From positions 360,001 to 392,000 of the forward strand of contig OY781871.1 of the NCBI GenBank assembly GCA_963677105.1: DNA of 32,000 bases, read 5' to 3'. A program made the translations under genes and the position numbers. The notes beneath the pieces were generated by a model. The model was not told where the DNA came from. It saw only the letters and a list, made by a program, of their open reading frames with translations, and did no database searches. Origin of the DNA: Candidatus Saccharimonadota bacterium (GTDB taxonomy: Bacteria; Patescibacteriota; Gracilibacteria; UBA4473). Positions 2,524 through 31,969 of this stretch are shown one piece after another; the stretch's first letter is position 1; each line of letters begins with the position of its first letter.

Positions 2524-3378
2524 ATGACACAACAAAACTTTGACTACGAACTTATCGACTGTGGAAACGAACGTCGCCTAGAACGTTTCGGAAAAACAAT
2601 TGTAAATCGTCCTGCTCCGCAGGCGTTTTGGCATAGAAATGATATGATTGAAGAATGGAAGAATATCGATGCATATTATGAACGTCCTGAAAATGGAGAA
2701 AAAAAATGGAGTAAAGATTCTCAATTCCCTGAAAACTGGAACATAACTATTGATAATATTACGTTTGAACTTCGTCCCTCTGTAAATAATCAACTCGGAA
2801 TTTTTCCTGAACAATTAGAAAACTGGCGATGGATGACAAGACAAATTCAAAAGGCAAATCGCCCGCTCAAAATCTTGAATACTTTTTCTTATACGGGAGC
2901 CGCAACATTGATGGCAAGTGCCGCTGCTGAAAATGTAGAAGTTTGTCATGTAGATGGAGCCAAATCTTCTGTTACATGGGCACGAAAAAATGCAGAACTT
3001 TCTGGACTTTCTGATCGACCGATTCGTTGGATTGTTGATGACGTATTGCAATTCATGGAACGCGAAGTAAAACGTGGCAACAAATATGATGGAATTATTT
3101 TAGATCCACCGGCTTTCGGTCGCGGAGCAAAAGGAACATGGAAACTTCAACGAGATTTACCGAAACTTCTAAACCTTGTCGAAAAACTTCTCTCTGAAAA
3201 TCCTTGTTTTGTAATCTTGAGTTGTCACTCAACTGAATTTGCTTCAAAAGACTTAGCACAAATGCTTGAAAAAATTCCTCCTTTTTCTGGAAAACAATCT
3301 GAATCTGTAAATCTGATTATTCCATCTACAAATGGATCTGAATTGTGGTCTGGTACTTGTGGAAGAATAGCAGGATAA
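2524..3378 (+). CDS. Class I SAM-dependent methyltransferase, RlmI/PF10672-like (no PUA domain)
   Basis: The DGIILDPPAFGRG motif and the preceding TFSYTGAATL glycine-rich SAM loop are typical of the RlmI/YccW family. The track ORF starts at TTG 2476. I prefer ATG 2524 (MTQQNFDYELIDCGNERRLERFG), which does not overlap heptamer array a. Confidence 0.7.
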   Translation: MTQQNFDYELIDCGNERRLERFGKTIVNRPAPQAFWHRNDMIEEWKNIDAYYERPENGEKKWSKDSQFPENWNITIDNITFELRPSVNNQLGIFPEQLENWRWMTRQIQKANRPLKILNTFSYTGAATLMASAAAENVEVCHVDGAKSSVTWARKNAELSGLSDRPIRWIVDDVLQFMEREVKRGNKYDGIILDPPAFGRGAKGTWKLQRDLPKLLNLVEKLLSENPCFVILSCHSTEFASKDLAQMLEKIPPFSGKQSESVNLIIPSTNGSELWSGTCGRIAG

Positions 3379-3380
3379 AA

Positions 3381-3415
3381 CTACAAATTACAATGTACAA
3401 AGTTCAAATCACAAG
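3381..3415 (-). repeat. Heptamer array b (read on minus strand): CTTGTGA TTTGAAC TTTGTAC ATTGTAA TTTGTAG
   Basis: 7-nt periodicity. Starts 2 nt after the methyltransferase stop codon (TAA 3376-3378). Inverted relative to array a. Confidence 0.85.
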
Positions 3416-3491
3416 CTTTTTAATTTCAAACTGAAGTTTGACCGATACGCCTTTCTGCGGTATTTTTTTTCAGCAAACAATTTCTTGAAAT

Positions 3492-5288
3492 ATGAATGTT
3501 ACAACCGACGATCTGAGAAAAAAGTGGCTTGAATTTTGGAAAAAAAAGAATCACATCATTATTCCTTCTGCTGGAGTTTTGCCGGACAATGATCCAACCG
3601 CATTATTTCACAATTCTGGAATGCATCCGCTTGTTCCGTATCTTTGTGGACAAACTCATCCCGAAGGACGTCAATTAGCAAATGCGCAAAAATGTATTCG
3701 TACAGGTGATATTGATGAAGTTGGTGACGCAACACATTTAACATTTTTTGAAATGTTGGGAAACTGGTCATTGGGCGATTATTTTAAAAAAGAACAGATT
3801 GAATGGTCGTTTGAATTTTTAACACAAGAATTAAACCTTCCTTTGGAAAAGTTAGCAGTAAGTGTTTTTGCTGGAGACGATGATGCTCCACGAGATCAAG
3901 AAGCTGCTGATTTGTGGAAAGCTGCTGGAATTCCTGAAAACAAAATTGCATATCTCGGTAAATCAGATAATTGGTGGGCAAAAGGAGACATTGGTCCATG
4001 TGGAACAGACACAGAAATGTTTTTTTGGACTGGAGATGAAGCTGCTCCCAAAAGTTTTCAAGAATCACACAATGATCCTCGATGGGTTGAAATTTGGAAC
4101 GACGTTTTTATGACCTTTAATCGAAAAGCTGATGGAAGTTTGGAAGAATTGGAACAAAAAAATATCGATACTGGAATGGGACTAGAACGAACTGTTGCTG
4201 TTTTAAATGGAAAAAAATCCGTATATGAAACAGATGCTTTCACTGAGATTTTAGCGAAAATTGCAGAACTTTCTGGAGATCCAAAACTTGCAATCAATCC
4301 TCTTGCAGAAACAGCCGCAGCAAACTCAATGCGCGTTATTGCTGATCACATACGATCAGGAAGTATGATTCTCGCTGATAAGGTTTCCCCGAGTAATGTT
4401 GATCAAGGATATATTCTTCGCCGACTTCTCAGACGTGCTATTCGTCATGGAAAAAAACTCGGAATTGAAGGACATTTCACTGTAAAAATTGCTGAAGAAG
4501 TGAAGAAAAAACTCGGACATCAATACACTGAATTAGAAAAAAACTGGAATTTTATCGTAGAAGAACTCGAGCAAGAAGAAGAACAATTTGCGAAAACACT
4601 TGAAACGGGAGAACGCGAATTTAATAAATTAGCCGGAAAAATTTTAGAATTTTCGAATAAAAAAGAACTCAGTGGGAAAAAAGCATTTTGGCTCTATGAA
4701 ACCTATGGATTTCCATTTGAAATGACTGAGGAATTGTGTGCCGAACAAGGACTCACTGTAGATAAAAGTGGATTCGATGAAGCGGCAAAAAAGCATGCTG
4801 AGGCTTCACGTGCAGGTTCTGAACAAAAATTCAAAGGAGGTCTTGGAGATACTTCTGTGGAAACAACTAATTTACATACCGCAACGCACCTCCTTCATGC
4901 TGCATTAAAAAAAGTTTTGGGAGATCACGTTGAACAACGCGGATCAAATATAACACCTGAACGATTGCGATTTGATTTTTCTCATGGAGAAAAGATGACA
5001 CCAGAAGAAAAAACCAAAGTAGAAAACCTCGTTAATGAAGCTATCGATGCAAATGTCGAAATCACGTGTGAAGAAACGTCCGTCGATGATGCAAAATCTC
5101 AGGGAGCAATTGGACTCTTTGGAAACAAGTATGGAGAAAAAGTGAAAATGTACACGATGGGAGCATTTTCTAAAGAAATTTGTGGAGGACCACATGCAGA
5201 AAAAACGGGAAATCTCGGGAAGTTTCGTATTAAAAAAGAAGAAGCATCTTCTCGCGGAGTACGACGAATTAAAGCGGTGCTGGATTAA
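3492..5288 (+). CDS. alaS: Alanine--tRNA ligase, short form ending after the editing domain
   Basis: Class II AlaRS N-terminus (FHNSGMHPLVPYLCG, KCIRTGDIDEVGD.THLTFFEMLGNWS.GDYFK). Editing-domain HxxxH (HTATHLLHAALKKVLG) and CGGPH motifs. The protein ends at VRRIKAVLD, with no C-Ala/oligomerisation domain. Confidence 0.93.
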   Translation: MNVTTDDLRKKWLEFWKKKNHIIIPSAGVLPDNDPTALFHNSGMHPLVPYLCGQTHPEGRQLANAQKCIRTGDIDEVGDATHLTFFEMLGNWSLGDYFKKEQIEWSFEFLTQELNLPLEKLAVSVFAGDDDAPRDQEAADLWKAAGIPENKIAYLGKSDNWWAKGDIGPCGTDTEMFFWTGDEAAPKSFQESHNDPRWVEIWNDVFMTFNRKADGSLEELEQKNIDTGMGLERTVAVLNGKKSVYETDAFTEILAKIAELSGDPKLAINPLAETAAANSMRVIADHIRSGSMILADKVSPSNVDQGYILRRLLRRAIRHGKKLGIEGHFTVKIAEEVKKKLGHQYTELEKNWNFIVEELEQEEEQFAKTLETGEREFNKLAGKILEFSNKKELSGKKAFWLYETYGFPFEMTEELCAEQGLTVDKSGFDEAAKKHAEASRAGSEQKFKGGLGDTSVETTNLHTATHLLHAALKKVLGDHVEQRGSNITPERLRFDFSHGEKMTPEEKTKVENLVNEAIDANVEITCEETSVDDAKSQGAIGLFGNKYGEKVKMYTMGAFSKEICGGPHAEKTGNLGKFRIKKEEASSRGVRRIKAVLD

Positions 5289-5582: not shown

Positions 5583-5610
5583 TTTGTACTTTGAAGTTTG
5601 AAGTTTGATT
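5583..5610 (+). repeat. Heptamer array c: TTTGTAC TTTGAAG TTTGAAG TTTGATT
   Basis: Exact 7-nt period. The last unit overlaps the first base of the pyrF stop codon (minus-strand TAA at 5610-5612). Confidence 0.85.
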
Positions 5611-6443
5611 TATGCGTCCCATGCATTCAATAAATTCTGCAAAACTGCACGTCCAGCTTCTGCAAAATCTTTGTCATCACTTGCATATAAAACTGCTCGA
5701 GAAACAGGAACGAGAACTCCAAGTCCATCTACTTGCACATCTTTTACTGCATCAATTGATCCTCCTTGCGCTCCAACTCCAGGACAAAGAAACCATGCAT
5801 GAGGCATTTCTTCTCGGAAAAATTTCAAAAATTCTGGCTCAATCGTTGCTCCAATTACTGCTCCAACTGAAGCGAGCATTGTATCTACAGACTGAGTGGT
5901 CATATTCCATTCTTCAACTTTTTCTGCAATCTTACGTGACATTTCATATTCTCCTCCTTGAAATTCTTGAGCCGATGGATTTGAAGTACGAACAAGAACA
6001 AAAATTCCTCGTCCATTTTTTTCACAACGCTCAACAAATGGAGTAATTCCATCTGTTCCAAGCAATGGATTTACCGTCATACAATCTGCTGCCAACGGTC
6101 CATTTTCTAAATACGCTTTTGCATACGCATCTGCTGTTGATCCAATATCATTTCGTTTCCCATCTACCATCGTGATGAGATCTAAGCTTTTCGCTAACGC
6201 CAATAATTCTTCAACCGCTTTGATTCCTTCTGAACCAAATTGTTCGAAATACGCCATCTGAATTTTAATCCCACAAATAAGATCATGTGTCGCCACCATC
6301 ATCTTTGTACAAAATTCCAATGCTCCTTTTGCATCTTGAGAAAAGAAATCGGGCATCTTTTCTAAATTCGGATCAAGTCCGAGCATAAGACATGAATTTT
6401 TTGCTTGCACAGCAGCCGTAAGTCGATCAGAGAAGTTTTCCAT
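5610..6443 (-). CDS. pyrF: Orotidine 5'-phosphate decarboxylase (type 2)
   Basis: 277 aa. N-terminal LMLGLDPN, DGKRNDIGSTADAYAKAY and a C-terminal GVGAQGG-type phosphate-binding loop are characteristic of long-form PyrF. Confidence 0.9.
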   Translation of the reverse strand: MENFSDRLTAAVQAKNSCLMLGLDPNLEKMPDFFSQDAKGALEFCTKMMVATHDLICGIKIQMAYFEQFGSEGIKAVEELLALAKSLDLITMVDGKRNDIGSTADAYAKAYLENGPLAADCMTVNPLLGTDGITPFVERCEKNGRGIFVLVRTSNPSAQEFQGGEYEMSRKIAEKVEEWNMTTQSVDTMLASVGAVIGATIEPEFLKFFREEMPHAWFLCPGVGAQGGSIDAVKDVQVDGLGVLVPVSRAVLYASDDKDFAEAGRAVLQNLLNAWDA

Positions 6444-6955: not shown

Positions 6956-7228
6956 ATGTTCTATGTGTATGTCTTAAAGAGTAAAAATCGAAATTATATT
7001 TATGTTGGTTTAACTTCCAATATTGAGCGGCGTGTAAATCAACACAATTCGTTGAAAGAAAAAACTACTCGATCATATGCACCCTTTACATTAATTCATT
7101 CTGAAACTTTTAAAACTCGTCCAGAAGCTCGTAAAAGAGAAATATTCTTCAAATCTGGATGTGGAAAAGAATGGATAAAGAAACAATTTATCAGCACGAG
7201 TGGCGAAACGGTAGACGCGCTAGCTTGA
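6956..7228 (+). CDS. GIY-YIG (URI-domain) nuclease family protein, YhbQ/COG2827-like
   Basis: MFYVYVLKS..NYIYVGLTSNIERRVNQHN...K.RPEARKREIFFKSG matches the GIY-x10-YVG, R, and E signature of small stand-alone GIY-YIG proteins. The last 11 codons and the TGA stop lie inside tRNA-Leu. The stop covers loop position 33 and anticodon positions 34-35. Confidence 0.8.
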   Translation: MFYVYVLKSKNRNYIYVGLTSNIERRVNQHNSLKEKTTRSYAPFTLIHSETFKTRPEARKREIFFKSGCGKEWIKKQFISTSGETVDALA

Positions 7229-7282
7229 GGGGCTAGTGGGAAATTTATTCCCGTGGAGGTTCAAATCCTCTCTCGTGCACCA
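7194..7282 (+). tRNA. tRNA-Leu(GAG), type II with long variable arm and encoded CCA
   Basis: Manual cloverleaf: GCACGAG/CTCGTGC acceptor; anticodon arm CTAGC-TTGAGGG-GCTAG; variable arm TGGGAAATTTATTCCCGT; T-arm GGAGG-TTCAAAT-CCTCT; discriminator A then CCA. Collinear with E. coli tRNA-Leu. Confidence 0.9.
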
Positions 7283-7402: not shown

Positions 7403-7612
7403 ATGTCACTTATTGAAGAATATGGACTTAGTGATGATTATCCAGAAGGATCAGATATTCCAAGGGCTGTAGAACTAATTAAAGAATTAGAAGAAAATGG
7501 CTATTTAATAAGAGCTACTACTCTAGCAACAAATATTCAACTCCTAATAAAAGAAAAGCCACCCGCCATTCATAAAAGAGTTGATGAAATTATAAAGGCG
7601 GCATTATCTTAA
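7403..7612 (+). CDS. Hypothetical protein (69 aa)
   Basis: ATG ORF with acidic/helical composition. No motif recognised. Confidence 0.4.
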   Translation: MSLIEEYGLSDDYPEGSDIPRAVELIKELEENGYLIRATTLATNIQLLIKEKPPAIHKRVDEIIKAALS

Positions 7613-7634
7613 TTTATTTTAAAAAACCCACTCA

Positions 7635-7669
7635 TTTGTACTCTGTATTTTGTAATTTGAACTTTGATA
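7635..7669 (+). repeat. Heptamer array d: TTTGTAC TCTGTAT TTTGTAA TTTGAAC TTTGATA
   Basis: 7-nt period. Occupies the convergent gap and ends 1 nt before the stop codon (7671-7673) of the minus-strand 202-aa gene. Confidence 0.85.
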
Positions 7670-7670
7670 T

Positions 7671-8279
7671 CTAGTAGCACTCAATCTTATACTCAACACG
7701 ATCCGCATTTTCTCCGGATTTAATTTGGTATGTCAAAAATGCTGTTTCATCATCCAATATCATACTATTTGGAAGATTTCTCATCTGAGCTGGAACTAAA
7801 TCATTCACCGTAACAGCTGCACTATAAACTGATTTTTGTTTTTTAGCAGCAATTCCCATGATTTGAATTGACCCAATTTGTGGCTGATCTAAATCACGAA
7901 ATTCATCTCGTAAACGCACGATTATTCGTGCTCCGTTTGCACACGTATTTTCATGAATCATAAATGAAATCATTCCACTTAAATCTTTGGCTAACAAATA
8001 TTCATGTCCACTTTTAACAGCTGAATCTTTTTGTTGAATAGCCCTTAGAGCAAGACTCATTTCTTTTATTTCTTCTAACAATTCTTGTTGCACTGCTTTT
8101 TCTGGTGACACAAGTGATGTTTTCAATTCTTCCCACGGAGTCATTATGACAGCGACTACAACTACAACAAGCCCCACTATACCAAAAGAAACATTTCGAA
8201 TAACTGTCCCAGAAATTTCAATAAATTCAGGTTTTTTCTTTCCTTTCTTGATATTAAAATTTTCGGGGAGATTCATCAT
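7671..8279 (-). CDS. Hypothetical membrane-anchored protein (202 aa)
   Basis: Single N-terminal TM segment (VSFGIVGLVVVVVAVIMTPW) followed by a ~150-aa domain. Lies downstream of thrS on the same strand. No motif recognised. Confidence 0.55.
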   Translation of the reverse strand: MMNLPENFNIKKGKKKPEFIEISGTVIRNVSFGIVGLVVVVVAVIMTPWEELKTSLVSPEKAVQQELLEEIKEMSLALRAIQQKDSAVKSGHEYLLAKDLSGMISFMIHENTCANGARIIVRLRDEFRDLDQPQIGSIQIMGIAAKKQKSVYSAAVTVNDLVPAQMRNLPNSMILDDETAFLTYQIKSGENADRVEYKIECY

Positions 8280-11396: not shown

Positions 11397-11793
11397 TTCA
11401 AAAGTTTTCCTTTTGTATCGAAACTTTTTGCTTCAATAACTTTGCCTAAAACCGTCCCCAATCACTTTTCATAATATTTGTATTTTTTGTATCGAAAGCT
11501 TTTTGTTTCAAAGTTTTCATATTGTTTTATTAAACAATAAAGTAGTTTACCAAATACTATAAATAAAATCAAACACTTTTTTGGCAAATATGAATAAATA
11601 GTCGTTATCTAAAAGAGGAAATTTCTTTGCCTCTTCTTAGAATACAAGTAAACTCCTCACGAATGGCTAGCAACTAAATGCTAATTGCGGCTCAGTACCG
11701 CCAGATTCGCCATCTGAAAAAGCTCTTCCCACGAAGTTCCTAACAAATCCCACATACGGGATAAGGCTCGTGCGTTCATAATTAAAAACAAAT

Positions 11794-14772: not shown

Positions 14773-14895
14773 TCTGTGTTGATGTCGACCTACTTTCCCA
14801 GGATAACTCCAAGTATCATCGGCGCTGAAAGGCTTAACTGCTGAGTTCGGGATGGTATCAGGTGTACCCCCTTCGCTACAAACATCAACACAGAG
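14773..14895 (-). rRNA. rrf: 5S ribosomal RNA (ends +/- 5 nt)
   Basis: The reverse complement reads ...GTAGCGAAGGGGGTACACCTGATACCATCCCGAACTCAGCAGTTAAGCCTTTCAGCGCCGATGATACTTGG...GGGAAAGTAGGTCGACATCAACA, collinear with bacterial 5S. The terminal helix is formed by CTCTGTGTTGATGT / ACATCAACACAGAG. Confidence 0.93.
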
Positions 14896-15009
14896 TTTTC
14901 TAATTCTAGAATATAACTCTGATACGTAACAAATTCCTAAGGTCATTCAAATGTTTCTGAAACATTTCCTCTAAATTGTTCACCGAACGATGAAACAAAT
15001 TACTTGAAA

Positions 15010-17900
<2,891 letters not shown>

Positions 17901-18176
17901 TTTCAAGATTTGTTTATCGTTCGGTAAACAAATTACAGAAAACATTCAGTAATTTTCTAAAACACTCAATCGAAATTGAATGCTATTAAAAGACATTTGA
18001 TTTGCGTTCACTATCTCTAAGGAAATAAAAATAGTAAACATTTACTCCAATCTCATTAAATTGCTTAATTGAGACTGAAATTGACTCCAATTTCAATTAG
18101 AAATTGGAATTTAGGAATCTGTTCGTGTCAAAGATCCTTGCCATATCGCATTCACAATGAGCGCGACAGCCGGGAG

Positions 18177-18319: not shown

Positions 18320-21106
18320 CTATGAACGATGCCGTAAGAAAAGAACCATTCCAAGTCCTGTAATAATTGCAAAAACTGCAAACCACCAAGAAGTCGAATT
18401 TCCTGTTTTAGGTGGAGCAGGGTGCTCCACTTTATCACAAAAAGGTGTACCAGCGACAATGATGCTTCCCGGTCCCTCTAATCCTTCTTGATCAATAGGT
18501 GTTACCTGAAAATACATTTCTACACACGGTTCAAGTCCGTCAACATACCACTGAGTTCTTGCATCTGGTGTCAGGTTTACATCAAACAAGGTTGTTTCAT
18601 TTTTTCCGAAATTTATACGATAATTTTTTATCCCTTTATCATCAACTGCCGGAGACCATAAAACAGTCACTCGTTTTTCCCCTGGCAACGTGTGTACACT
18701 CGATGCTGGTAATGGCGGAATATTTTCAGAAGATTCTATTATTAAATTTTTTACATCCGTCATTTCTACTCCTTCCTTACTCATTCCAATGAATTTCACG
18801 GGATACACTCCTGATGTTTCTGGCGCAATAAAAGGAACTGAAAAGTTTTTCGAATCAGACGAAGCCAAGCTGTACGTCTTTCCTGCAATTTCACAATTCA
18901 CCGAAGCAAGTTCGCTCAACGATTGAGCCGACGCAATAACTTCTGTTAAAGCAGGTATTTCTCCTTCTGAATCGAGAGCCGTAGCCCAATCACCAACCGT
19001 TAACATTTGTGTATCAACCATTTGATTTCCCTGCAAATCCGTCCCTACGCAATCCACTGGATAAATTCCTTGTGCTGCTGGAGCAAAAACTTTCGTTGAA
19101 AAGTTTTTCGAATCGGATGACGTCAAATTATATGTTTGACCCAAAAGTCCGCAACTCACACTTGATAACTCCCCAAAAGATTGCGCAAGAATTGTGGTTT
19201 CTGTAAGTGGCAACACTGAACCTGTTGGATCAAGTTCTACTGATAAACTTCCTACTTTTAATGTTCTTATTTCTGTTGTTTTATTTCCCTGTAGATCTGT
19301 CATAGTACACGGAACTGAATATTCTCCGAGACTTTCTGGTGCTTGAATTTCCGAAGAAAAGTTTTTTGAGTCTTTTGTCTCAAGCTCGTGCTCACTTCCT
19401 ATAAACTGACACGTAACATTGGATAATTTATTTAAAGAACGAACGTAAATAGTTGAATAAGTAAGTGGCAACACTGTTCCTTCTGGGATCAATTCCATCG
19501 TTCCCTGAAACCCTTCTACTAGGAGTGTTCCTGCGTTTGGGTCTGTGATTTTATTTCCTAATAAATCGATTAATGTCGTACTTATTGAATATTCTCCTTT
19601 CGAAAATGGTGCTAAACAAGTTTTTGAAAAGACTTTCGGTGTTTCCATTTCTAGATCACACTTTTGACCATCAATTTCAACACTTACTGAAGATAGTTCA
19701 TCTTCTGCTTCTATTGTAAAAAGCACATTCATTCCCGGAGACACTCCTTCTTTTGGAACAATTTCCAAAGACATAATTTTTGAGGGAGAACGGTCAATCG
19801 TTACTTGTACAACCTCTGACACAACTGTTGGATCTTCTACTGAAGTCGCCTGAAAAAGATGAATTCCTTCTGCCAATCGTGGTGTCTGATATACATATTT
19901 CCCAGAGGAATCCACCGGCAATGCGCTAATAAGTTCTGTTGGTCCATCTGTTAAGCGAACTAATGATGTTCCAACTGCGGTTCCCGAAATTGTGATACGA
20001 GAAGAGCTAAACGTAGACCCATTTACCGGAACATCTATTCTTACTTCTGGTGTCGGATCAGGAATTGCTACTACACCACTACTGTCTGAAACCGTAACGT
20101 TTCTTTCTCCTGAGATACGAAAATCTCCTAAATCATGAACGGCAATTGTTTGCATTCCGGGAGTCTGTAACATTACAGACAAATAAAACGTGTGCCATCC
20201 CTGATCTTCTGAAACAAACGTATAGTCATTTGGTAAGACTGCTCGATCATCACTCGAAGAAAATCGAATCGTTCCCGTGTAATTTGCGACAACTGCTCCA
20301 TCTGCATCTTTTGCTCCCACTCGTACGGTCATATTTTCTCCAGCAACTATTTCTGATTCCAAGTCTTCGATAGAAAAATAAGCTACTGGAACTTCTTCTT
20401 TCGGGTCTTCAAAAAGTTGCGCTTGTAAAAATTTCCCAATACCACTCGCTCCCATGGCTAAATTCCCTGTATTTGCTAAATGAAACACTAATTCTGTGCG
20501 CTCAAATAAAAGAACGTCTCCCACTAAAACTGAAATCGAAGAAACGCCTGGTGTATTTGAAGAAACTTTTACTATCACTTCTCCTTGCTCATTTGTTTCT
20601 GGAGCAGCGACAACAGAATCTTCTGCGCGCGAAGAAAACGCTCTCACTGGCGCATTTACAATTACATTTCCATGAGGATCTTTTGCTTGTACACGAATAC
20701 GCGCCACTTGCTCTCCATCTGCTGCAAGAGAAGAAATGTCAACTGATTGTGTAGAACGATATGCTGAAACGGATGACGGAGAAACGAAAAATTGTTCAGC
20801 AATTACATGTGAACTTTGTTCTCGACGAACCAGTAATTCATATGATCCTGCTTGGCGTACATGAAGTCCGTAAATGGAAAATGATGCAACTCCTAAGTCA
20901 TTTGCCGTAACATCTATTGATATTTTTGATTCATCTGGACGCACTAATAATAGTGATAGATTTTCGTTCTCAAGTAATCCAGAAACTCGTACTGGAATAT
21001 CTTTTCCCGCAATACTCGGAGAAATATTAATCCATGGACCAGCAGCAAATACTGTTCCCATGAGAACAAGACATGCAAGTGAAAGCCGAAAAAACAATTT
21101 TTTCAT
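18320..21106 (-). CDS. Large surface protein: signal peptide, Ig-like (Big-type) domains, four ~85-aa repeats, FN3 domain, sortase-type C-terminal sorting signal
   Basis: Preferred start is ATG 21106 (MKKLFFRLSLACLVLMGTVFAAGPW); the track extends to 21157 across a heptamer array. Four repeats carry the core S(V/N)xC...G..(Y/H).L...DSKNFS....AP...G.Y.V.C...DLQGN. The FN3-like segment is LPGEKRVTVLWSP...YRINFG. The C-terminus has PPKTG, then the hydrophobic stretch STSWWFAVFAIITGLGMVLFL, then RHRS. Confidence 0.8.
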   Translation of the reverse strand: MKKLFFRLSLACLVLMGTVFAAGPWINISPSIAGKDIPVRVSGLLENENLSLLLVRPDESKISIDVTANDLGVASFSIYGLHVRQAGSYELLVRREQSSHVIAEQFFVSPSSVSAYRSTQSVDISSLAADGEQVARIRVQAKDPHGNVIVNAPVRAFSSRAEDSVVAAPETNEQGEVIVKVSSNTPGVSSISVLVGDVLLFERTELVFHLANTGNLAMGASGIGKFLQAQLFEDPKEEVPVAYFSIEDLESEIVAGENMTVRVGAKDADGAVVANYTGTIRFSSSDDRAVLPNDYTFVSEDQGWHTFYLSVMLQTPGMQTIAVHDLGDFRISGERNVTVSDSSGVVAIPDPTPEVRIDVPVNGSTFSSSRITISGTAVGTSLVRLTDGPTELISALPVDSSGKYVYQTPRLAEGIHLFQATSVEDPTVVSEVVQVTIDRSPSKIMSLEIVPKEGVSPGMNVLFTIEAEDELSSVSVEIDGQKCDLEMETPKVFSKTCLAPFSKGEYSISTTLIDLLGNKITDPNAGTLLVEGFQGTMELIPEGTVLPLTYSTIYVRSLNKLSNVTCQFIGSEHELETKDSKNFSSEIQAPESLGEYSVPCTMTDLQGNKTTEIRTLKVGSLSVELDPTGSVLPLTETTILAQSFGELSSVSCGLLGQTYNLTSSDSKNFSTKVFAPAAQGIYPVDCVGTDLQGNQMVDTQMLTVGDWATALDSEGEIPALTEVIASAQSLSELASVNCEIAGKTYSLASSDSKNFSVPFIAPETSGVYPVKFIGMSKEGVEMTDVKNLIIESSENIPPLPASSVHTLPGEKRVTVLWSPAVDDKGIKNYRINFGKNETTLFDVNLTPDARTQWYVDGLEPCVEMYFQVTPIDQEGLEGPGSIIVAGTPFCDKVEHPAPPKTGNSTSWWFAVFAIITGLGMVLFLRHRS

Positions 21107-21144
21107 CAGAGGAATATTAGCATCGAAACACAATAGAAAGCAAG

Positions 21145-21179
21145 ATTCAAAGTACAAAGTGCAAAGTTCAATTTACAAA
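21145..21179 (-). repeat. Heptamer array e (read on minus strand): TTTGTAA ATTGAAC TTTGCAC TTTGTAC TTTGAAT
   Basis: 7-nt period. Lies 38 nt upstream of the surface-protein start (21106), in TTTG-sense relative to that gene. Confidence 0.85.
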
Positions 21180-21244
21180 CCTTAAATGAGAAAGAGTAAA
21201 CAAGGGAGACTTTTTTAAAATTATATTTGGAATAACAAAAAAAT

Positions 21245-21272
21245 TTTGTACTTTGATATTTGTTCTTTGTGT
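21245..21272 (+). repeat. Heptamer array f: TTTGTAC TTTGATA TTTGTTC TTTGTGT
   Basis: 7-nt period. Lies just distal to the rplL terminator and is inverted relative to array e. Confidence 0.8.
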
Positions 21273-21275
21273 TTT

Positions 21276-21311
21276 TAAAAAACTCCCATCTCATTGAGAT
21301 GGGAGTTTTTC
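21276..21311 (-). terminator. Rho-independent (bidirectional-type) terminator of rplJ-rplL
   Basis: ACTCCCATCTC-att-GAGATGGGAGT (11 bp), flanked by an A-run and a T-run. Confidence 0.85.
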
Positions 21312-24684: not shown

Positions 24685-25599
24685 TCAATCTTCACGCTCT
24701 AAATCCTTAAATTTATGGAAAAAAATCCCTGGAACAAGAGATTCTGCGGTAACCATTTCTCCGTTTTTATCCGGATCAGGAAAAGTTAATGTTTCTGCGT
24801 GAAGCAAGAGTCTTTCGTGGAATTCTCCTCCGTATTTTGTATCTCCAATAATGGGAAACCCAATTGAAGATAAATGTACTCTAATTTGATGTGTTCGTCC
24901 GGTCGGAATACGTACTCTTAACATGGAACTTTTTTCGTCAACACTTAAGGCAATGCGTTCAAAATAACTTTCTGCATCTCTTGAGTCAGAACTTACAGAA
25001 ACAGACATTTTGGTTCTATTTTGAAAATCTCGTCCAATCGCCGCTTCAATTCTTCCTGCTTGAGGAGTTCTTCCTGACACAATCGCGCGATACCATTTTT
25101 CTGTCTCGCTCCAATGTTTTTGAAAATAACGAAGTGCGGCATCTGTTCTTGCAACAAGCAAAACTCCGGATGTTGGTTTATCTAATCGGTGTACGATTCC
25201 CGGACGCAAATATTCATCTGGAAATGACTTTTCCCATGCAGGAAATTGATGAACTAACGCATTTACGATTGTATGTTGGTCTGTGTCTGAAACGGATGGA
25301 TGAATGGAAATTCCAATTGGTTTTTCTATCACAATCCATGATTTCGATTCCGCTAATATTTTCAATGGAAAATCCCATGACTCAAGATTTGGTGACAATC
25401 CTGACGCTGGCTCGCAAGAAATGGTCCACAAATCGCCCAATATTGATTTTGCTTTATAAGAAGCCTTTTCTCCATTTCGCTGGAAAATTCCCGCTTTTTG
25501 CCAACGTGAACGAGAAAATTCCGGCACTAATTCTGCAGCCAACACATCCATGCGTTTTCCTGCTTGCTTTTCTGAAATGGTAAATGTTAACTCAGTCAT
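24685..25599 (-). CDS. rluD: RluA-family pseudouridine synthase (RluD-like, S4-type N-terminus)
   Basis: Catalytic HRLDKPTSGVLLVART motif and GRTHQIRVHL motif. Its start overlaps the murJ stop by 4 nt (ATGA). Confidence 0.85.
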   Translation of the reverse strand: MTELTFTISEKQAGKRMDVLAAELVPEFSRSRWQKAGIFQRNGEKASYKAKSILGDLWTISCEPASGLSPNLESWDFPLKILAESKSWIVIEKPIGISIHPSVSDTDQHTIVNALVHQFPAWEKSFPDEYLRPGIVHRLDKPTSGVLLVARTDAALRYFQKHWSETEKWYRAIVSGRTPQAGRIEAAIGRDFQNRTKMSVSVSSDSRDAESYFERIALSVDEKSSMLRVRIPTGRTHQIRVHLSSIGFPIIGDTKYGGEFHERLLLHAETLTFPDPDKNGEMVTAESLVPGIFFHKFKDLERED

Positions 25600-26882: not shown

Positions 26883-26971
26883 GCGCCGAGTGTGCCATGG
26901 AATGAGAAATTGAGCAAATTGGCGAGTTTGGATTTAGTAAAAAAAACTGGGAAAAATATAAACTCTTAAAA

Positions 26972-26999
26972 TTTCAATTTTCAAACTACAATTTACAAA
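26972..26999 (-). repeat. Heptamer array g-left (read on minus strand): TTTGTAA ATTGTAG TTTGAAA ATTGAAA
   Basis: 7-nt period. Points toward murJ (start 26882). Directly abuts array g-right, forming a palindromic centre TTTACAAA|TTTGTAA. Confidence 0.85.
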
Positions 27000-27037
27000 T
27001 TTGTAATTTGAACTTTGGAGTTTTAAGCGAAACGACT
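27000..27037 (+). repeat. Heptamer array g-right: TTTGTAA TTTGAAC TTTGGAG TTTTAAG, plus the shared tail CGAAACGACT
   Basis: 7-nt period. Points toward the LTD-protein gene (start 27110). The tail TTTTAAGCGAARCGAYT recurs at 31953-31969. Confidence 0.85.
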
Positions 27038-27109: not shown

Positions 27110-29422
27110 ATGAAATATGTGATTATAAGTTTTTTTCTCTTTTGGGTAGTAATAACACAAGCTGCTATTCGAATAAACGAAGTCGCTTGGTCAGGAACTC
27201 CAACGAGTAGTAATGACGAATGGATTGAACTTTTTAATGATGGAGAAGAAACTATTTCCGTAGAAAACTGGACTCTAAAAGCAGTCGATGAAAGTCCTGA
27301 CATAACTCTTGCTGGAGAAATCGAACCAAATGGATTTTTTCTACTAGAACGAACCGATGATACAACCGTCCCAAATATTGAAGCGAATATAATTTATGCT
27401 GGATCACTTTCTAACACTGGCGAAGAATTGATTTTGAGTGATGAACATGAAAACGAAATTTGTAGAACTCCTTCTGGAAATTGGCCCGCTGGAGAAAGTT
27501 CTCCTGAAAGACGATCCATGATGTGGCTTGAAAATGAATGGAAAACTTTTTTGGGAGAAGCCAATGAATTTGGAATATTTGGAACTCCTGGAACAGAAAA
27601 TATAATTCCTCCTCCAGAACCACCGGAAACTACGTTTCAATCTGCAGAACCAATAAGTGTGAAAATATCCGAATTATCTCCCATCTCCATTGGAGAACCT
27701 GAATGGTTTGAAGTAGAAATATTGGCAATCAACGCTATTGACCTCGATAAATGGAAAATCAAAAAAGGCACAAGTGAGATTTTGTTATCAGAACTCACAT
27801 TTGCAAATGGTGGACAATCCCTTTCTGGACAATCTGTAACACTTCTTGAAAACGGTCTTGTAGGACATGAACAACTCAATGGAACGGATTTTACGTTTAC
27901 TGAAGATTCTCAAGTTTGGCTAAGTGATAATGAATCTACTCCTCTTCGATTTGTCGGAAACCCCAGTCCAATAAGTCTTCCTGACGGCGGAGGAGCTCTA
28001 GAAATTCTAAATGAGCAAAACGAAGTTTTGAGTTCTGCCACGTGGGGAAATACTCGAAATGGAGTACAGGATGGGTTTCGCTGGGGAGAAATTTGGAATT
28101 GGAATCCAATAAAATATTGGCCGTTACGAAGTAATGAAAATGCTCCAACTCACACTCGTGGAGAGGAAAATAGAACTGCTCCTGTCTTTCCTGAGCAACT
28201 AAATATTCGTATCGATGAAATTTCGCCGAATAGAATAAATGGCGTTGATTTCATTGAAATACTGATCACTGAAGCCCCAGAAAATAGCATTCTTCCTCCA
28301 TGGAATATAAAACATAATGGAACAGAACTTTTCTCGAGCGGAGGAGAATTTGTAGAATCTGGAGATAGAATTACGCTTTTTTTTGAAAGTGAACTCGTCG
28401 AAGAAAATCCTTCACGATGGATAAATAGAACTACTTCAAACGATACGCAAACAGAAAAAATTTGGGAAAGCAGTAAAAAAAATGGGCTCAATAAAACGAG
28501 CGGTACTTTAGAATTAAATATTTGGACTGGAACAAGCTGGGAAAAAACTGCAGATTTTATTTGTTGGGTTAAAGACGAATTACCCGAGGCGGAACAAGTT
28601 CGATTAGAAAATCATCCAGATGATTGGATTGGATCATGTTTTCAAAACGCAAGTATATTGCAAAACGAGTCAATCGCTCGACCAGAAGAATCAATAGACA
28701 CAAATAGTGCTACTGATTTTTTCCATCATTTCAATGGTTCTCCTGAAGAAATAAATATTCCTCAAAATGCCCCACCTGTTCCAAAAATACTCGTTCAGGG
28801 AAGTCGACGCGTGTATGATGCATCACTTAATTTGACTGGACTTGATGGCGAAAATGCTACAACCGATCCTGATGGATTACATGATTTGAAGTCTTGGAAA
28901 TGGGAAATTGAAGGAACCAGTTGTGGGAATTATTCTACTGATAATTGGGAGTGGAGTAATGTAAAAAAAGGAATTAAATCATGTGAAGAAGAAAGCTCGC
29001 GTGCCAACCCAGGAGTAATTTATTTTAACTTCAATGAACAAGAAAAATTTCATGTAACACTGACCGCAGAAGATTATTCTGGCGCAAATGCAAGCGTGAC
29101 AGTAGAACTTGATCGTGATCCGTTCAATGTTGGTGGCGGAGGAAGTGTTTTTGATGCTCCGTTAAAAAAATGGCTTGCAAAAGAACTTGAAAAAGATGCA
29201 ATACAAGAGCGAAAAACGTTAAAAGTTGGAACAAATCAATCAATAAGTGAACATTTTTTCGATGATTTTTTAACACATCTTGATTATAAAAAAATAGATC
29301 CTCGATTTTGGAAACCAAATCCTCCCCAACCAAAATTAATTTCTGGAAAATTTCGTGATCGAATCCCAGAAGACGACATATTTAAAATTAAAAAAAATAT
29401 CGGATTAGTCTTTTTATATTAA
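27110..29422 (+). CDS. Secreted protein with three lamin-tail-domain (LTD) modules and a PKD-like domain
   Basis: Preferred start ATG 27110 (MKYVIISFFLFWVVITQA signal). LTD signature I.I.E(V/L/I)....(E/D)(W/F)(I/F)E(L/I) occurs three times (IRINEVAWSG...NDEWIELFNDGEE..SVENWTL; VKISELSPISIGEPEWFEVE; IRIDEISPNRINGVDFIEILI). PKD-like segment TDPDG..DLKSWKWEI...FHVTLTAEDYSGANAS. Confidence 0.75.
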   Translation: MKYVIISFFLFWVVITQAAIRINEVAWSGTPTSSNDEWIELFNDGEETISVENWTLKAVDESPDITLAGEIEPNGFFLLERTDDTTVPNIEANIIYAGSLSNTGEELILSDEHENEICRTPSGNWPAGESSPERRSMMWLENEWKTFLGEANEFGIFGTPGTENIIPPPEPPETTFQSAEPISVKISELSPISIGEPEWFEVEILAINAIDLDKWKIKKGTSEILLSELTFANGGQSLSGQSVTLLENGLVGHEQLNGTDFTFTEDSQVWLSDNESTPLRFVGNPSPISLPDGGGALEILNEQNEVLSSATWGNTRNGVQDGFRWGEIWNWNPIKYWPLRSNENAPTHTRGEENRTAPVFPEQLNIRIDEISPNRINGVDFIEILITEAPENSILPPWNIKHNGTELFSSGGEFVESGDRITLFFESELVEENPSRWINRTTSNDTQTEKIWESSKKNGLNKTSGTLELNIWTGTSWEKTADFICWVKDELPEAEQVRLENHPDDWIGSCFQNASILQNESIARPEESIDTNSATDFFHHFNGSPEEINIPQNAPPVPKILVQGSRRVYDASLNLTGLDGENATTDPDGLHDLKSWKWEIEGTSCGNYSTDNWEWSNVKKGIKSCEEESSRANPGVIYFNFNEQEKFHVTLTAEDYSGANASVTVELDRDPFNVGGGGSVFDAPLKKWLAKELEKDAIQERKTLKVGTNQSISEHFFDDFLTHLDYKKIDPRFWKPNPPQPKLISGKFRDRIPEDDIFKIKKNIGLVFLY

Positions 29423-29432
29423 AAAATTACAA

Positions 29433-29467
29433 TTTGTACTTTGCACTTTGTAATTTGAAATTTGATC
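29433..29467 (+). repeat. Heptamer array h: TTTGTAC TTTGCAC TTTGTAA TTTGAAA TTTGATC
   Basis: Exact 7-nt period. Fills the convergent gap: it starts 10 nt after the LTD-gene stop and overlaps the stop codon (29466-29468) of the minus-strand gene by 2 nt. Confidence 0.9.
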
Positions 29468-30551
29468 ACTGTGTTGTCCACGCGCTTGGAGAAATTACTC
29501 GACCAAATGGATCTTCAGGGAAATTTACAACTTGAATATCTTGCGCAATTGCTGCTCTATTTGCTATGAGAACTGTTTGAATATTTTCTAATACCAAAAC
29601 ATATTCTGAAGTTTTTTGAGCAAAAATACGTCGTGCTTCAGCGTCAACAGAAAATTTTTGAAGATCTTTTTCCGCTTCTATTTTTCTGTCCAACAGCAAG
29701 GAAATGTCTTCTGGATTCGATGTTTTTAATGCGTCAAGGAATAAGGTTTCACTCTCTAGTGAAGCATTTCGTGCAGTGGCTGCTAGACGAGTAAACTCTG
29801 TGATGTCTTGCGACAATCTCGCTTGCAATACATCTGATCGACTTATTAATCGAGCAATCATTTGGAGTAATCGACCAACTTGATAATCTCGCAAAATTGC
29901 TGTTTCTCCTGTGATTTGCTCTGGAAATGGAACTTCAAACACACTCTCTACTTCGCGTTTCCAAAGTAACACTTCTGCCAATAAACCTTTTTGATCAGAA
30001 AGTCGCTGCGTTTCAATCCAATAATTCCACACCCCTAAAGAACGTCCAGCCATACTTTTTTGGGCAACCGTCGCCTTTTCTGTTGAGGAATTTTGCACTA
30101 TTTTTTCTTTTTTCTTTCCTGCTCGTTGAAGTTTTTCTGATAATGCATCTTTGGTTGGAAAAATTTTTGTCTTTACAGATTCTATTGCTATCGGCTTCTC
30201 TTGCAACGCCTTTTTCACATCTAGTTTGTCACTTCCTCCCCAAATCAACCAACCAACTATTCCCAATCCTCCTAGAACCAAAAGTGTTTTAAGAATTCCA
30301 AATCCAACACGACGCAAGAGCCAAACTGTATCTGTTGTGTCTTCCAAATCTGTTAACTCTTCATCTAATTCATCAAACTGATTTTCAGCTTGTTCTAATT
30401 TTTCCTTATCTTCTAATTCCGTCTCCGTCGGCTGTTTTTCAGGCTCAATAAGTGACTTCTCCTCTTCGAGAAAAGGTTGTGGTGCTGCAACTTGCTCCGA
30501 TGCTGGAGTAGTCGTCGCTTCTGTTGTTGATTCAAATGGATTTTCTACCAT
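29466..30551 (-). CDS. Hypothetical single-pass membrane protein (361 aa) with an acidic N-terminus and a helical C-terminal domain
   Basis: Preferred start ATG 30551 (MVENPFESTTE...), which avoids a 50-nt overlap with ruvC. TM segment VGFGILKTLLVLGGLGIVGWLIWGG. No family recognised. Confidence 0.6.
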   Translation of the reverse strand: MVENPFESTTEATTTPASEQVAAPQPFLEEEKSLIEPEKQPTETELEDKEKLEQAENQFDELDEELTDLEDTTDTVWLLRRVGFGILKTLLVLGGLGIVGWLIWGGSDKLDVKKALQEKPIAIESVKTKIFPTKDALSEKLQRAGKKKEKIVQNSSTEKATVAQKSMAGRSLGVWNYWIETQRLSDQKGLLAEVLLWKREVESVFEVPFPEQITGETAILRDYQVGRLLQMIARLISRSDVLQARLSQDITEFTRLAATARNASLESETLFLDALKTSNPEDISLLLDRKIEAEKDLQKFSVDAEARRIFAQKTSEYVLVLENIQTVLIANRAAIAQDIQVVNFPEDPFGRVISPSAWTTQ

Positions 30552-31848: not shown

Positions 31849-31880
31849 AAGAAGAAGCTTTTTGCTTCTTCTTTCTTCCT
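31849..31880 (+). terminator. Rho-independent terminator after the two small ORFs
   Basis: AAGAAGAAGC-ttttt-GCTTCTTCTT, followed by TCTTCC (weak U-tract). Confidence 0.6.
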
Positions 31881-31938: not shown

Positions 31939-31969
31939 TTTGTAGTTTGTGATTTTAAGCGAAGCGATT
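31939..31969 (+). repeat. Heptamer array i: TTTGTAG TTTGTGA TTTTAAG, plus the shared tail CGAAGCGATT
   Basis: Same family. The last unit plus tail match 27021-27037 (TTTTAAGCGAARCGAYT). Confidence 0.75.

Follow-up and report, generated by a model that had tools for sequence, protein, structure and literature searches.

Degenerate heptad arrays at gene boundaries of a Gracilibacteria-class genome: a possible hairpin-independent 3'-end element

How does a bacterium with very little non-coding DNA mark where one transcription unit ends and the next begins? Candidate phyla radiation (CPR)/Patescibacteria account for much of the diversity of bacteria, their genomes are very compact, and to our knowledge almost nothing is known of how their transcription units are delimited. 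The question is raised by a stretch of 32,000 nt (hereafter the window; assembly GCA_963677105.1, contig OY781871.1, positions 360,001–392,000, forward strand; all coordinates below count from its first letter) from a Candidatus Saccharimonadota bacterium (GTDB lineage Patescibacteriota; Gracilibacteria; UBA4473). In it, a first-pass annotation had pointed to four heptamer arrays beginning 0–2 nt from a stop codon. The junction coordinates and sequences of these four arrays are correct: each lies 0–2 nt from, or overlaps, a real stop codon, with CAAA in the mRNA sense. They belong to a family of degenerate heptad arrays which is amplified in this genome and sited at transcription-unit boundaries. 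We tentatively favour, at less than even confidence, the reading that the arrays are a boundary element, amplified in this lineage, that forms 3' ends or terminates transcription without a hairpin.

The window was searched with the pattern TTTGNNNTTTGNNNTTTG, allowing up to one mismatch; all in-window statistics refer to ten arrays and 13 gene ends in one window. The three-unit pattern matched 28 times where 1.36 matches were expected, and ten separate arrays occupied the 4.6 kb of intergenic DNA against an expectation of 0.28 from dinucleotide shuffles of that DNA. The genes (27 kb) contained two weak, chance-like matches and no convincing array. Self-similarity was specific to period 7, with nine segments at lag 7 and zero or one at lags 4, 5, 8, 10 and 11 under a stricter threshold. 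Across 42 units the consensus was TTTGWAN (T 86%, T 98%, T 100%, G 100%, W 90%, A 79%, N), with a TTG core invariant in 41–42 of 42, T or A at position 5 and a fully variable position 7; adjacent identical units occurred once (TTTGAAG twice, in A3). Arrays comprised three to six units, eight of the ten having four to six. They are, in order along the window:

A1, 2454–2481 (extended span 2447–2489), plus strand, TTTG sense on the plus strand.
A2, 3381–3415, plus strand, CAAA sense on the plus strand; CTACAAA TTACAAT GTACAAA GTTCAAA TCACAAG.
A3, 5583–5610 (the flagged interval), minus strand, CAAA sense for pyrF; plus strand TTTGTAC TTTGAAG TTTGAAG TTTGATT.
A4, 7635–7669, minus strand, CAAA sense for a 202-aa gene; plus strand TTTGTAC TCTGTAT TTTGTAA TTTGAAC TTTGATA.
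A5, 21138–21179, minus strand, TTTG sense on the minus strand.
A6, 21245–21272, minus strand, CAAA sense for rplL.
A7, 26965–26999, CAAA on the plus and TTTG on the minus strand, in the spacer between murJ and an LTD gene.
A8, 27000–27027, TTTG on the plus strand, in the same murJ/LTD-gene spacer.
A9, 29433–29467, minus strand, CAAA sense for a 361/388-aa gene.
A10, 31939–31959, plus strand, a weak array of three units, TTTGTAG TTTGTGA TTTTAAG.

The four flagged arrays meet their stop codons in slightly different ways. A2 starts 2 nt past the methyltransferase stop (TAA, 3376–3378), and A4 ends 1 nt short of the stop of the 202-aa gene (TAG, read as CTA on the plus strand, 7671–7673). The final T of A3 is the first base of the pyrF stop (TAA, read as TTA on the plus strand, 5610–5612), a 1-nt overlap, and A9 shares 2 nt with the TGA stop of the 361/388-aa gene (29466–29468). 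The three on the minus strand all end in TTTGAT, as first described. When the position and the orientation of each array were randomized within its own spacer, at least four arrays within 2 nt after a stop and in CAAA sense arose with P ~9e-5, so that the adjacency is not a matter of chance. The tight coupling to stops proposed at first therefore stands as adjacency and falls as phase: the first CAAA stands 2, 3, 5 or 6 nt from the stop, which rules out phase-locking to the stop codon. Variable offsets, together with arrays that borrow 0–2 nt of the stop itself, point instead to space-filling, and the array looks like a tract occupying the free non-coding DNA of a compact genome up to the stop.

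One of these stops needed checking against the genetic code. The window has a G+C content of ~37%, and the proteins closest to its glyceraldehyde-3-phosphate dehydrogenase (GAPDH) are named Candidatus Gracilibacteria, which makes the organism a Gracilibacteria-class CPR relative. Gracilibacteria proper read TGA as glycine (code 25), a code that would erase the stop at 29466–29468. When open reading frames (ORFs) were re-called with TGA as a sense codon, the real genes of the window held no in-frame TGA in ~8000 codons, while off-frame ORFs held many, and the murJ and rluD genes overlap stop to start by ATGA at 25596–25599. Code 25 is thereby ruled out; the organism uses the standard code with TGA as stop, and the 29466–29468 stop is valid.

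The RNA that follows these stops is unstructured. The four flagged 3' untranslated regions (UTRs) folded with z-scores of +0.33, -0.23, +1.76 and -1.24 against shuffles, the one that holds A4 (+1.76) being less structured than 198 of 200 shuffled versions. The CAAA strand is A-rich with more C than G (C:G of 7:3, 6:1, 5:3 and 5:4). Of the five arrays that lie at a gene 3' end in CAAA sense, four (three of the four flagged arrays and the rplL array) have a run of five to seven U within the next 14 nt, compared with 9% of intergenic positions. T5–T6 runs stand within 2–8 nt of A2, A4 and A9, including T5 at 3417–3421 just after A2 and U6 in the mRNA sense after A4 (six A at 7621–7626 of the plus strand). 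A6, which lies just past the canonical hairpin terminator of rplL (stem 21283–21305), is followed by U7 (seven A at 21237–21243 of the plus strand). Ordinary terminators, a GC hairpin with a U tract, are in use here after the 639-aa gene, gap, ygjV, rplL, the 188-aa/NUDIX pair, engB and a 93-aa ORF. Stop-adjacent arrays were found at four of the six gene ends without a GC hairpin and at none of the seven with one (Fisher p = 0.02). For the two convergent gene pairs, at 7612/7671 and 29422/29466, the first-pass annotation had denied any hairpin terminator. Both gaps indeed lack a GC-rich one, but the 29422/29466 gap, which holds A9, can form a 9-bp AU hairpin followed by U6.

Consistent sense, lack of structure, a following U run and complementarity with hairpins are the reasons for which we favour a hairpin-free role at the 3' end. 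Further support comes from the GC hairpin that replaces A4 at the 202-aa orthologue of relatives, from the methyltransferase junction retained in L001 and from stop-adjacent CAAA arrays in other CPR lineages (all below). In such a scheme the stop-adjacent array would form an unstructured, A-rich, G-poor (NNNCAAA)4–5 tract that opens the 3' UTR, usually with a U5–7 run 2–8 nt further on, and would take the place that the GC hairpin has in ordinary terminators. A trans-acting factor might read the nascent CAAA tract; this could be a helicase like Rho, a protein that covers ~7 nt or a UUUG-type RNA that anneals to the tract. The factor would then release or process the transcript at the U run. 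The contact with the stop at 0–2 nt would reflect an array filling free non-coding space in a streamlined genome and not a phase-lock with the ribosome.

Polarity holds beyond the four arrays, in a form other than first stated. The claim that the CAAA strand is always in the mRNA sense is right for the four arrays chosen and fails for the window as a whole, where five of the six further arrays (A1, A5, A7, A8 and A10) read TTTG in the direction of the gene that they precede, 34–85 nt from its start codon. What is consistent is that the TTTG strand faces the nearest gene boundary, start or stop, in 9/9 scorable arrays; the transcript leaving a gene thus always carries the CAAA sense. Nor do both members of a convergent pair see the same orientation, since the partners of A9 (the LTD protein, stop at 29420–29422) and A4 (a 69-aa ORF) have these arrays in TTTG sense, 10 and 22 nt past their stops. 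Among the upstream arrays, A1 lies 43 nt past the hairpin terminator of the 639-aa gene (2372–2399) and 34 nt ahead of the methyltransferase ATG (2524), and A5 ends 35 nt upstream of the ATG (21106) of a gene for a Big_1 surface protein. A7 and A8 abut head to head (26965–27027), forming a palindrome or hairpin in the divergent murJ/LTD-gene spacer, and the TTTG strand of each faces its own gene, ~82 nt from the start codon. A10, near the window end, lies 65 nt past a hairpin at 31849–31873 and has the motif TTTTAAGCGAARCGA in common with A8.

Four syntenic relatives (L001, L243, L245 and L247; ~85% identity in GAPDH, 53–66% in the 202-aa protein) were compared at these junctions. L001 retains the methyltransferase junction in the form TAA-AA-CTACAAT CTTCAAA CTGGAAA CTACAAA TCACAGA, followed by a UUUG array and a U run that complete a zipper-like hairpin. 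This makes A2 the sole array kept at the orthologous site in a relative; the array is not kept in L245 or L247. At the 202-aa orthologue the relatives carry a classical GC hairpin and U7 where this genome has A4. L001 (7285–7314) and L243 (8895–8915) have a different period-7 tract, (NCAGTTN)3–5, right after the stop of that orthologue, then the GC hairpin, GTACAAG and U7. Array density in the relatives is 0–2 per 9–21 kb, from which we conclude that the family has expanded in this genome. The DNA 3' of A2 had looked at first sight like a terminator. It was rejected as one, as it carries a conserved promoter-like TTGACC-17-TATTTT (3438–3466) that is probably the alaS promoter, judging from its recurrence upstream of alaS in L001 (~3545–3575) and L247 (downstream of 13773, minus strand); L245 has the TTGACC element only. 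The alaS gene itself (3492–5288) encodes an alanyl-tRNA synthetase of only 598 aa that ends at TAA. Relatives have the same short form (599–604 aa), and the C-terminal C-Ala domain thus appears to be missing in this clade.

Several of these results weigh against a hairpin-free 3'-end role. Five of the ten arrays stand in the opposite sense at gene 5' ends, and such a role accommodates them poorly: they would have to act on upstream-antisense transcripts or be separate copies linked to promoters. The varying distance between the stop and the first CAAA does not suit a strict stop-coupled RNA signal, A3 has no U run nearby, and the complementarity with hairpins comes from a small sample of 13 gene ends in one window at p = 0.02. 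One of three testable junctions is kept in relatives: the A3 array is absent after pyrF in L001, L245 and L247, and A4 is absent from the 202-aa gene in all relatives compared. The flagged arrays, at 28–35 nt, are also shorter than classical rut sites, which are unstructured, ribosome-free tracts of about 60–80 nt with more C than G; they are rut-like in being unstructured and C>G from the stop codon on, but they are A-rich. A tblastn search for rho, limited to the loci collected for comparison, gave no match. A final point comes from another phylum, where related arrays have the opposite polarity (see below). The suggestion of a 3'-UTR element is supported in part, with its unstructured, G-poor tract, its U run and its complementarity to GC hairpins on one side, and with half of the arrays in the other sense and mostly unkept junctions on the other.

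The sites could instead act as double-stranded DNA, a reading that we consider possible though rather doubtful. A protein dimer would bind each heptad and polymerize over four or more of them, as omega (ParB) of pSM19035 does, to yield a polar boundary, an insulator, a roadblock or a global regulon, the mRNA sense being incidental. The exact 7-bp period, the invariant TTG core and the free seventh position suit such operators, as do three to six units per array: the parS sites of pSM19035 are contiguous 7-bp repeats bound by a ribbon-helix-helix protein, which needs at least four contiguous heptads, direct or inverted (PMC9499535). Both orientations and a head-to-head pair (A7/A8) occur in the window, a TTTG strand turned toward the nearest gene at promoter and gene-end sites alike is easier to explain at the DNA level, and opposite polarity in another phylum fits lineage-specific proteins. 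However, no candidate ribbon-helix-helix or other binding protein was found among the small ORFs of the window examined for domains. The U-run association and the anticorrelation with hairpins also stay unexplained unless the complex is a roadblock terminator, and the ~300 sites obtained by extrapolation are many for a 0.96-Mb genome.

The arrays might also be dispersed selfish or neutral repeats of the REP (repetitive extragenic palindromic) or SSR (simple sequence repeat) type, spread by copying or slippage and surviving where they are harmless, after stops and between terminators and promoters. This we judge unlikely, although part of the evidence speaks for it. A4 and A9 are identical at 31 of 35 positions, and several arrays have end units in common (GTACAAA distal, ATCAAA proximal), a likeness that suggests copies of a common element or of one master. 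The family is abundant here and nearly absent in relatives with an 85% identical GAPDH, its junctions are not conserved, and heptanucleotide repeats are in excess in prokaryotes and the commonest of their long SSRs (Mrazek 2007, as cited in PMC4679880). Yet imperfect units around a conserved core do not look like the outcome of slippage, the arrays have neither target-site duplications nor flanks in common, and DNA without a use should tend to be lost from a streamlined genome of 0.96 Mb. The consistent polarity (9/9) and the link to U runs would call for a further explanation, and the methyltransferase array persists in L001 even though its internal units have diverged.

A link to promoters likewise seems improbable. 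Units would serve as -35-like TTGWAN hexamers, the upstream arrays providing -35 and upstream elements and the stop-adjacent copies being antisense promoters or without function. The invariant TTG (41–42 of 42 units) agrees with it. A1 and A5 end 34–35 nt before ATGs, at -35 distance from TACTCT (A1) and TGCTAATAT (A5, through its last, degenerate unit CTTGCTT, which would make a candidate promoter with TGCTAATAT). The last unit of A4 gives TTGATA-18-TATACT, a 10/12 match, and the units of Komeilibacteria read TTTGACA. Against this, A3 and A9 lack a -10-like hexamer at the right spacing, A7 and A8 lie ~50 nt upstream of any plausible -35, and it would be strange for housekeeping genes to have four antisense promoters directed into them. 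Matches to consensus promoters are rarer in the window than in shuffles, so they carry little weight. Antisense promoters at gene 3' ends were rejected: A4 has a -10-like hexamer and A2 a weak one, no more than chance would give, and the others have none. At the Big_1 gene, the extended -10-like TGCTAATAT ends 7 nt ahead of the ATG at 21106 (21104–21130, minus strand), and the gene may be leaderless.

It is very improbable that the arrays are arms of AU-rich zipper hairpins, in which the pairing of CAAA and UUUG arrays, in cis or in trans, would give a terminator or processing stem, lone arrays being half-elements. Pairs of this kind do exist. The A7/A8 palindrome is strong (dG -21, fold z -5.2, pairing z -3.9), and A6 pairs weakly with A5 (fold z -2.2, pairing z -1.9). 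Full CAAA/UUUG hairpins stand at the methyltransferase of L001 and in Uhrbacteria (L107) and Saccharibacteria (L018), and a CAAA-then-UUUG order with a U run fits the logic of a terminator. But none of the four flagged arrays has a complementary partner arm within 110 nt that pairs better than in shuffles (z +0.73, -0.24, +1.23 and +0.59), which largely refutes a hairpin arm in cis for A2, A3, A4 and A9. Their regions fold no more stably than shuffles, and pairing in trans is pure speculation. Binding of cold-shock domains was set aside because the flagged mRNAs carry the CAAA strand and not TTTG, although the CspB consensus GTCTTTG/T (PMC1904285) resembles NNCTTTG. DNA uptake sequences, phase-variable SSRs, integron attC sites and the inverted repeats of invertible promoters were dropped, given degenerate units, the lack of a fixed long motif and a predicted Big_1 promoter outside the A5/A6 segment.

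Similar arrays recur in other lineages. Species-representative genomes were scanned for three TTTGNAN units followed by TTTG, irrespective of gene context, and genes in foreign loci were called with a simple longest-ORF caller. The matches listed included Nostocales, Pyrinomonadaceae and other Acidobacteriota, Verrucomicrobiota, Planctomycetota, Bacteroidota, Chloroflexota and at least ten CPR genomes; those outside CPR were mostly perfect repeats of four to five copies. Among the listed CPR loci, a CAAA array directly 3' of the stop of a long ORF was seen in at least four cases: two in Komeilibacteria (L013, units TTTGACA), with one array 0 nt after TAA and another whose first unit contains the TGA stop, and one each in Uhrbacteria and Parcubacteria. 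In Uhrbacteria (L107, 5095–5230), TGA and 2 nt are followed by four CAAA units, and this array pairs with a downstream UUUG array over a stem of ~45 bp followed by U6, a heptad zipper that looks like a giant intrinsic terminator. In Parcubacteria (L009), TAG and five units lead to a GC hairpin; there and in L013 the CAAA arrays lead straight into a GC hairpin of a widespread type, 'GTCATCCTGAGCG...GAAGGATC', with the junction CAAA-TTTGTCAT. One array among the listed CPR loci followed a stop in UUUG sense, and several others adjoined a TAA that is not a real gene stop. Saccharibacteria (L018) carry three near-identical hairpins in UUUG-then-CAAA order, [AGTTTNN]5[CTACAAA]4, between ribosomal-protein cistrons (S17, S8 and L16), each ending 25–31 nt before an ATG. 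The listed matches outside CPR, pooled across cyanobacteria, Verrucomicrobia, Planctomycetes, Bacteroidota and others, showed no orientation preference. A metagenome scan returned mostly soil and rhizosphere contigs (L123–L242) of ~53% G+C with degenerate (TTTGNNC)4–19 arrays. Unusual units common to the soil contigs and Pyrinomonadaceae genomes indicate that these contigs probably derive from Pyrinomonadaceae. Their arrays stand in UUUG sense at a median of 10 nt after stops, or in CAAA sense just upstream of starts. This polarity is opposite to that in the window, and no single RNA-level rule therefore holds across phyla.

These cases invite a wider hypothesis, which we regard as unlikely: CPR/Patescibacteria would use an undescribed hairpin-less terminator of a stop codon, (NNNCAAA)4–8 and a U run, in which the hairpin is replaced by a factor that covers 7 nt or by a UUUG RNA that anneals, and the same heptads, set as inverted pairs, would build the AU zipper terminators of Uhrbacteria and L001. 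If the arrays are functional 3'-end or boundary signals, they would make up a new and easily recognized class of terminator or insulator, would improve the annotation of operons and UTRs in metagenome-assembled CPR genomes, and would point to a nucleic-acid-binding factor that reads heptads. If they are selfish, even streamlined genomes below a megabase would tolerate repeat families that take up ~1% of their sequence and keep to the few nucleotides that follow a stop. Arrays with a TTTG core also adjoin the ends of coding sequences in Patescibacteria and in Pyrinomonadaceae-like contigs with lineage-specific polarity, a puzzle that spans phyla.

The neighbouring genes show features of their own. 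A 23S–5S rRNA pair (14777–17903, minus strand) has no 16S gene upstream; the next upstream gene encodes the Big_1 (Ig-like) surface protein of 928 aa, so the rRNA genes are unlinked. The 639-aa gene (401–2320) encodes an alanine-rich protein with no Pfam match and with 54-nt (18-aa) tandem repeats at 1217–1505 and 2028–2264. A 90-aa GIY-YIG ORF (6956–7228) overlaps the 5' part of tRNA-Leu(GAG) (7194–7282) by 35 nt. The 455-nt spacer between gap and rnj contains, at 11400–11520, about two copies of a 16-nt direct repeat, TTTTTGTATCGAAAGC, and a similar copy near 11410; this repeat has no relation to the heptads.

In the literature that we searched for heptamer repeats or Rho in CPR/Gracilibacteria, arrays like these are not described, and a comparison with known systems helps to place them. 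Intrinsic terminators also lie just after genes and have a downstream U5–7 tract, and at the gene ends of the window their GC hairpins and the stop-adjacent arrays are mutually exclusive. In the flagged arrays, by contrast, the tract before the U run is unstructured and hairpin-free (A9 alone has a weak 9-bp AU stem), and all but A3 have the U tract. As in rut sites, untranslated, unstructured C>G RNA starts where translation stops, but the strict 7-nt periodicity sets the arrays apart, as do their length and A-richness. REP and BIME (bacterial interspersed mosaic element) sequences are likewise dispersed, short and extragenic, often just after stops or between convergent genes. REPs are individually palindromic, whereas the flagged arrays are not, and only the composite A7/A8 is. 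The heptads of pSM19035 resemble ours in their contiguous 7-bp repeats, in direct and inverted arrangements and in a minimum of four units, which eight of the ten arrays reach; they differ in serving a few promoter sites on a plasmid, while here there is about one site per 3 kb of chromosome, gene 3' ends included, and no candidate protein was found among the small ORFs of the window. Cyanobacterial short tandemly repeated repetitive (STRR) sequences are heptamer repeats, and with SSR heptamers they have in common the 7-nt period, the intergenic bias and the sporadic phylogeny. SSRs are near-perfect and prone to slip, whereas here adjacent units are identical once in 42, and the units keep their core while positions 5 and 7 vary; the arrays have defined end units and a consistent polarity relative to genes. 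The nearest published analogue is the TAACTGA heptamer, found as direct repeats of two to six copies directly upstream of start codons in marine Beggiatoaceae, cyanobacteria and Bacteroidetes and proposed to be the site of an RNA-binding protein (MacGregor 2015, PMC4679880). Both are short tandem 7-nt arrays, abundant, intergenic, abutting the boundaries of coding sequences and patchy across lineages; the TAACTGA repeats are perfect and lie within a few nucleotides of starts, whereas ours are degenerate around a TTG core, the flagged copies following stops and the upstream ones standing 34–85 nt from an ATG in the opposite sense. The arrays described here are thus intergenic heptanucleotide repeat arrays that differ from the known ones in their degenerate units with a conserved core, their placement after stops and their polarity, and their function is probably related to gene boundaries.

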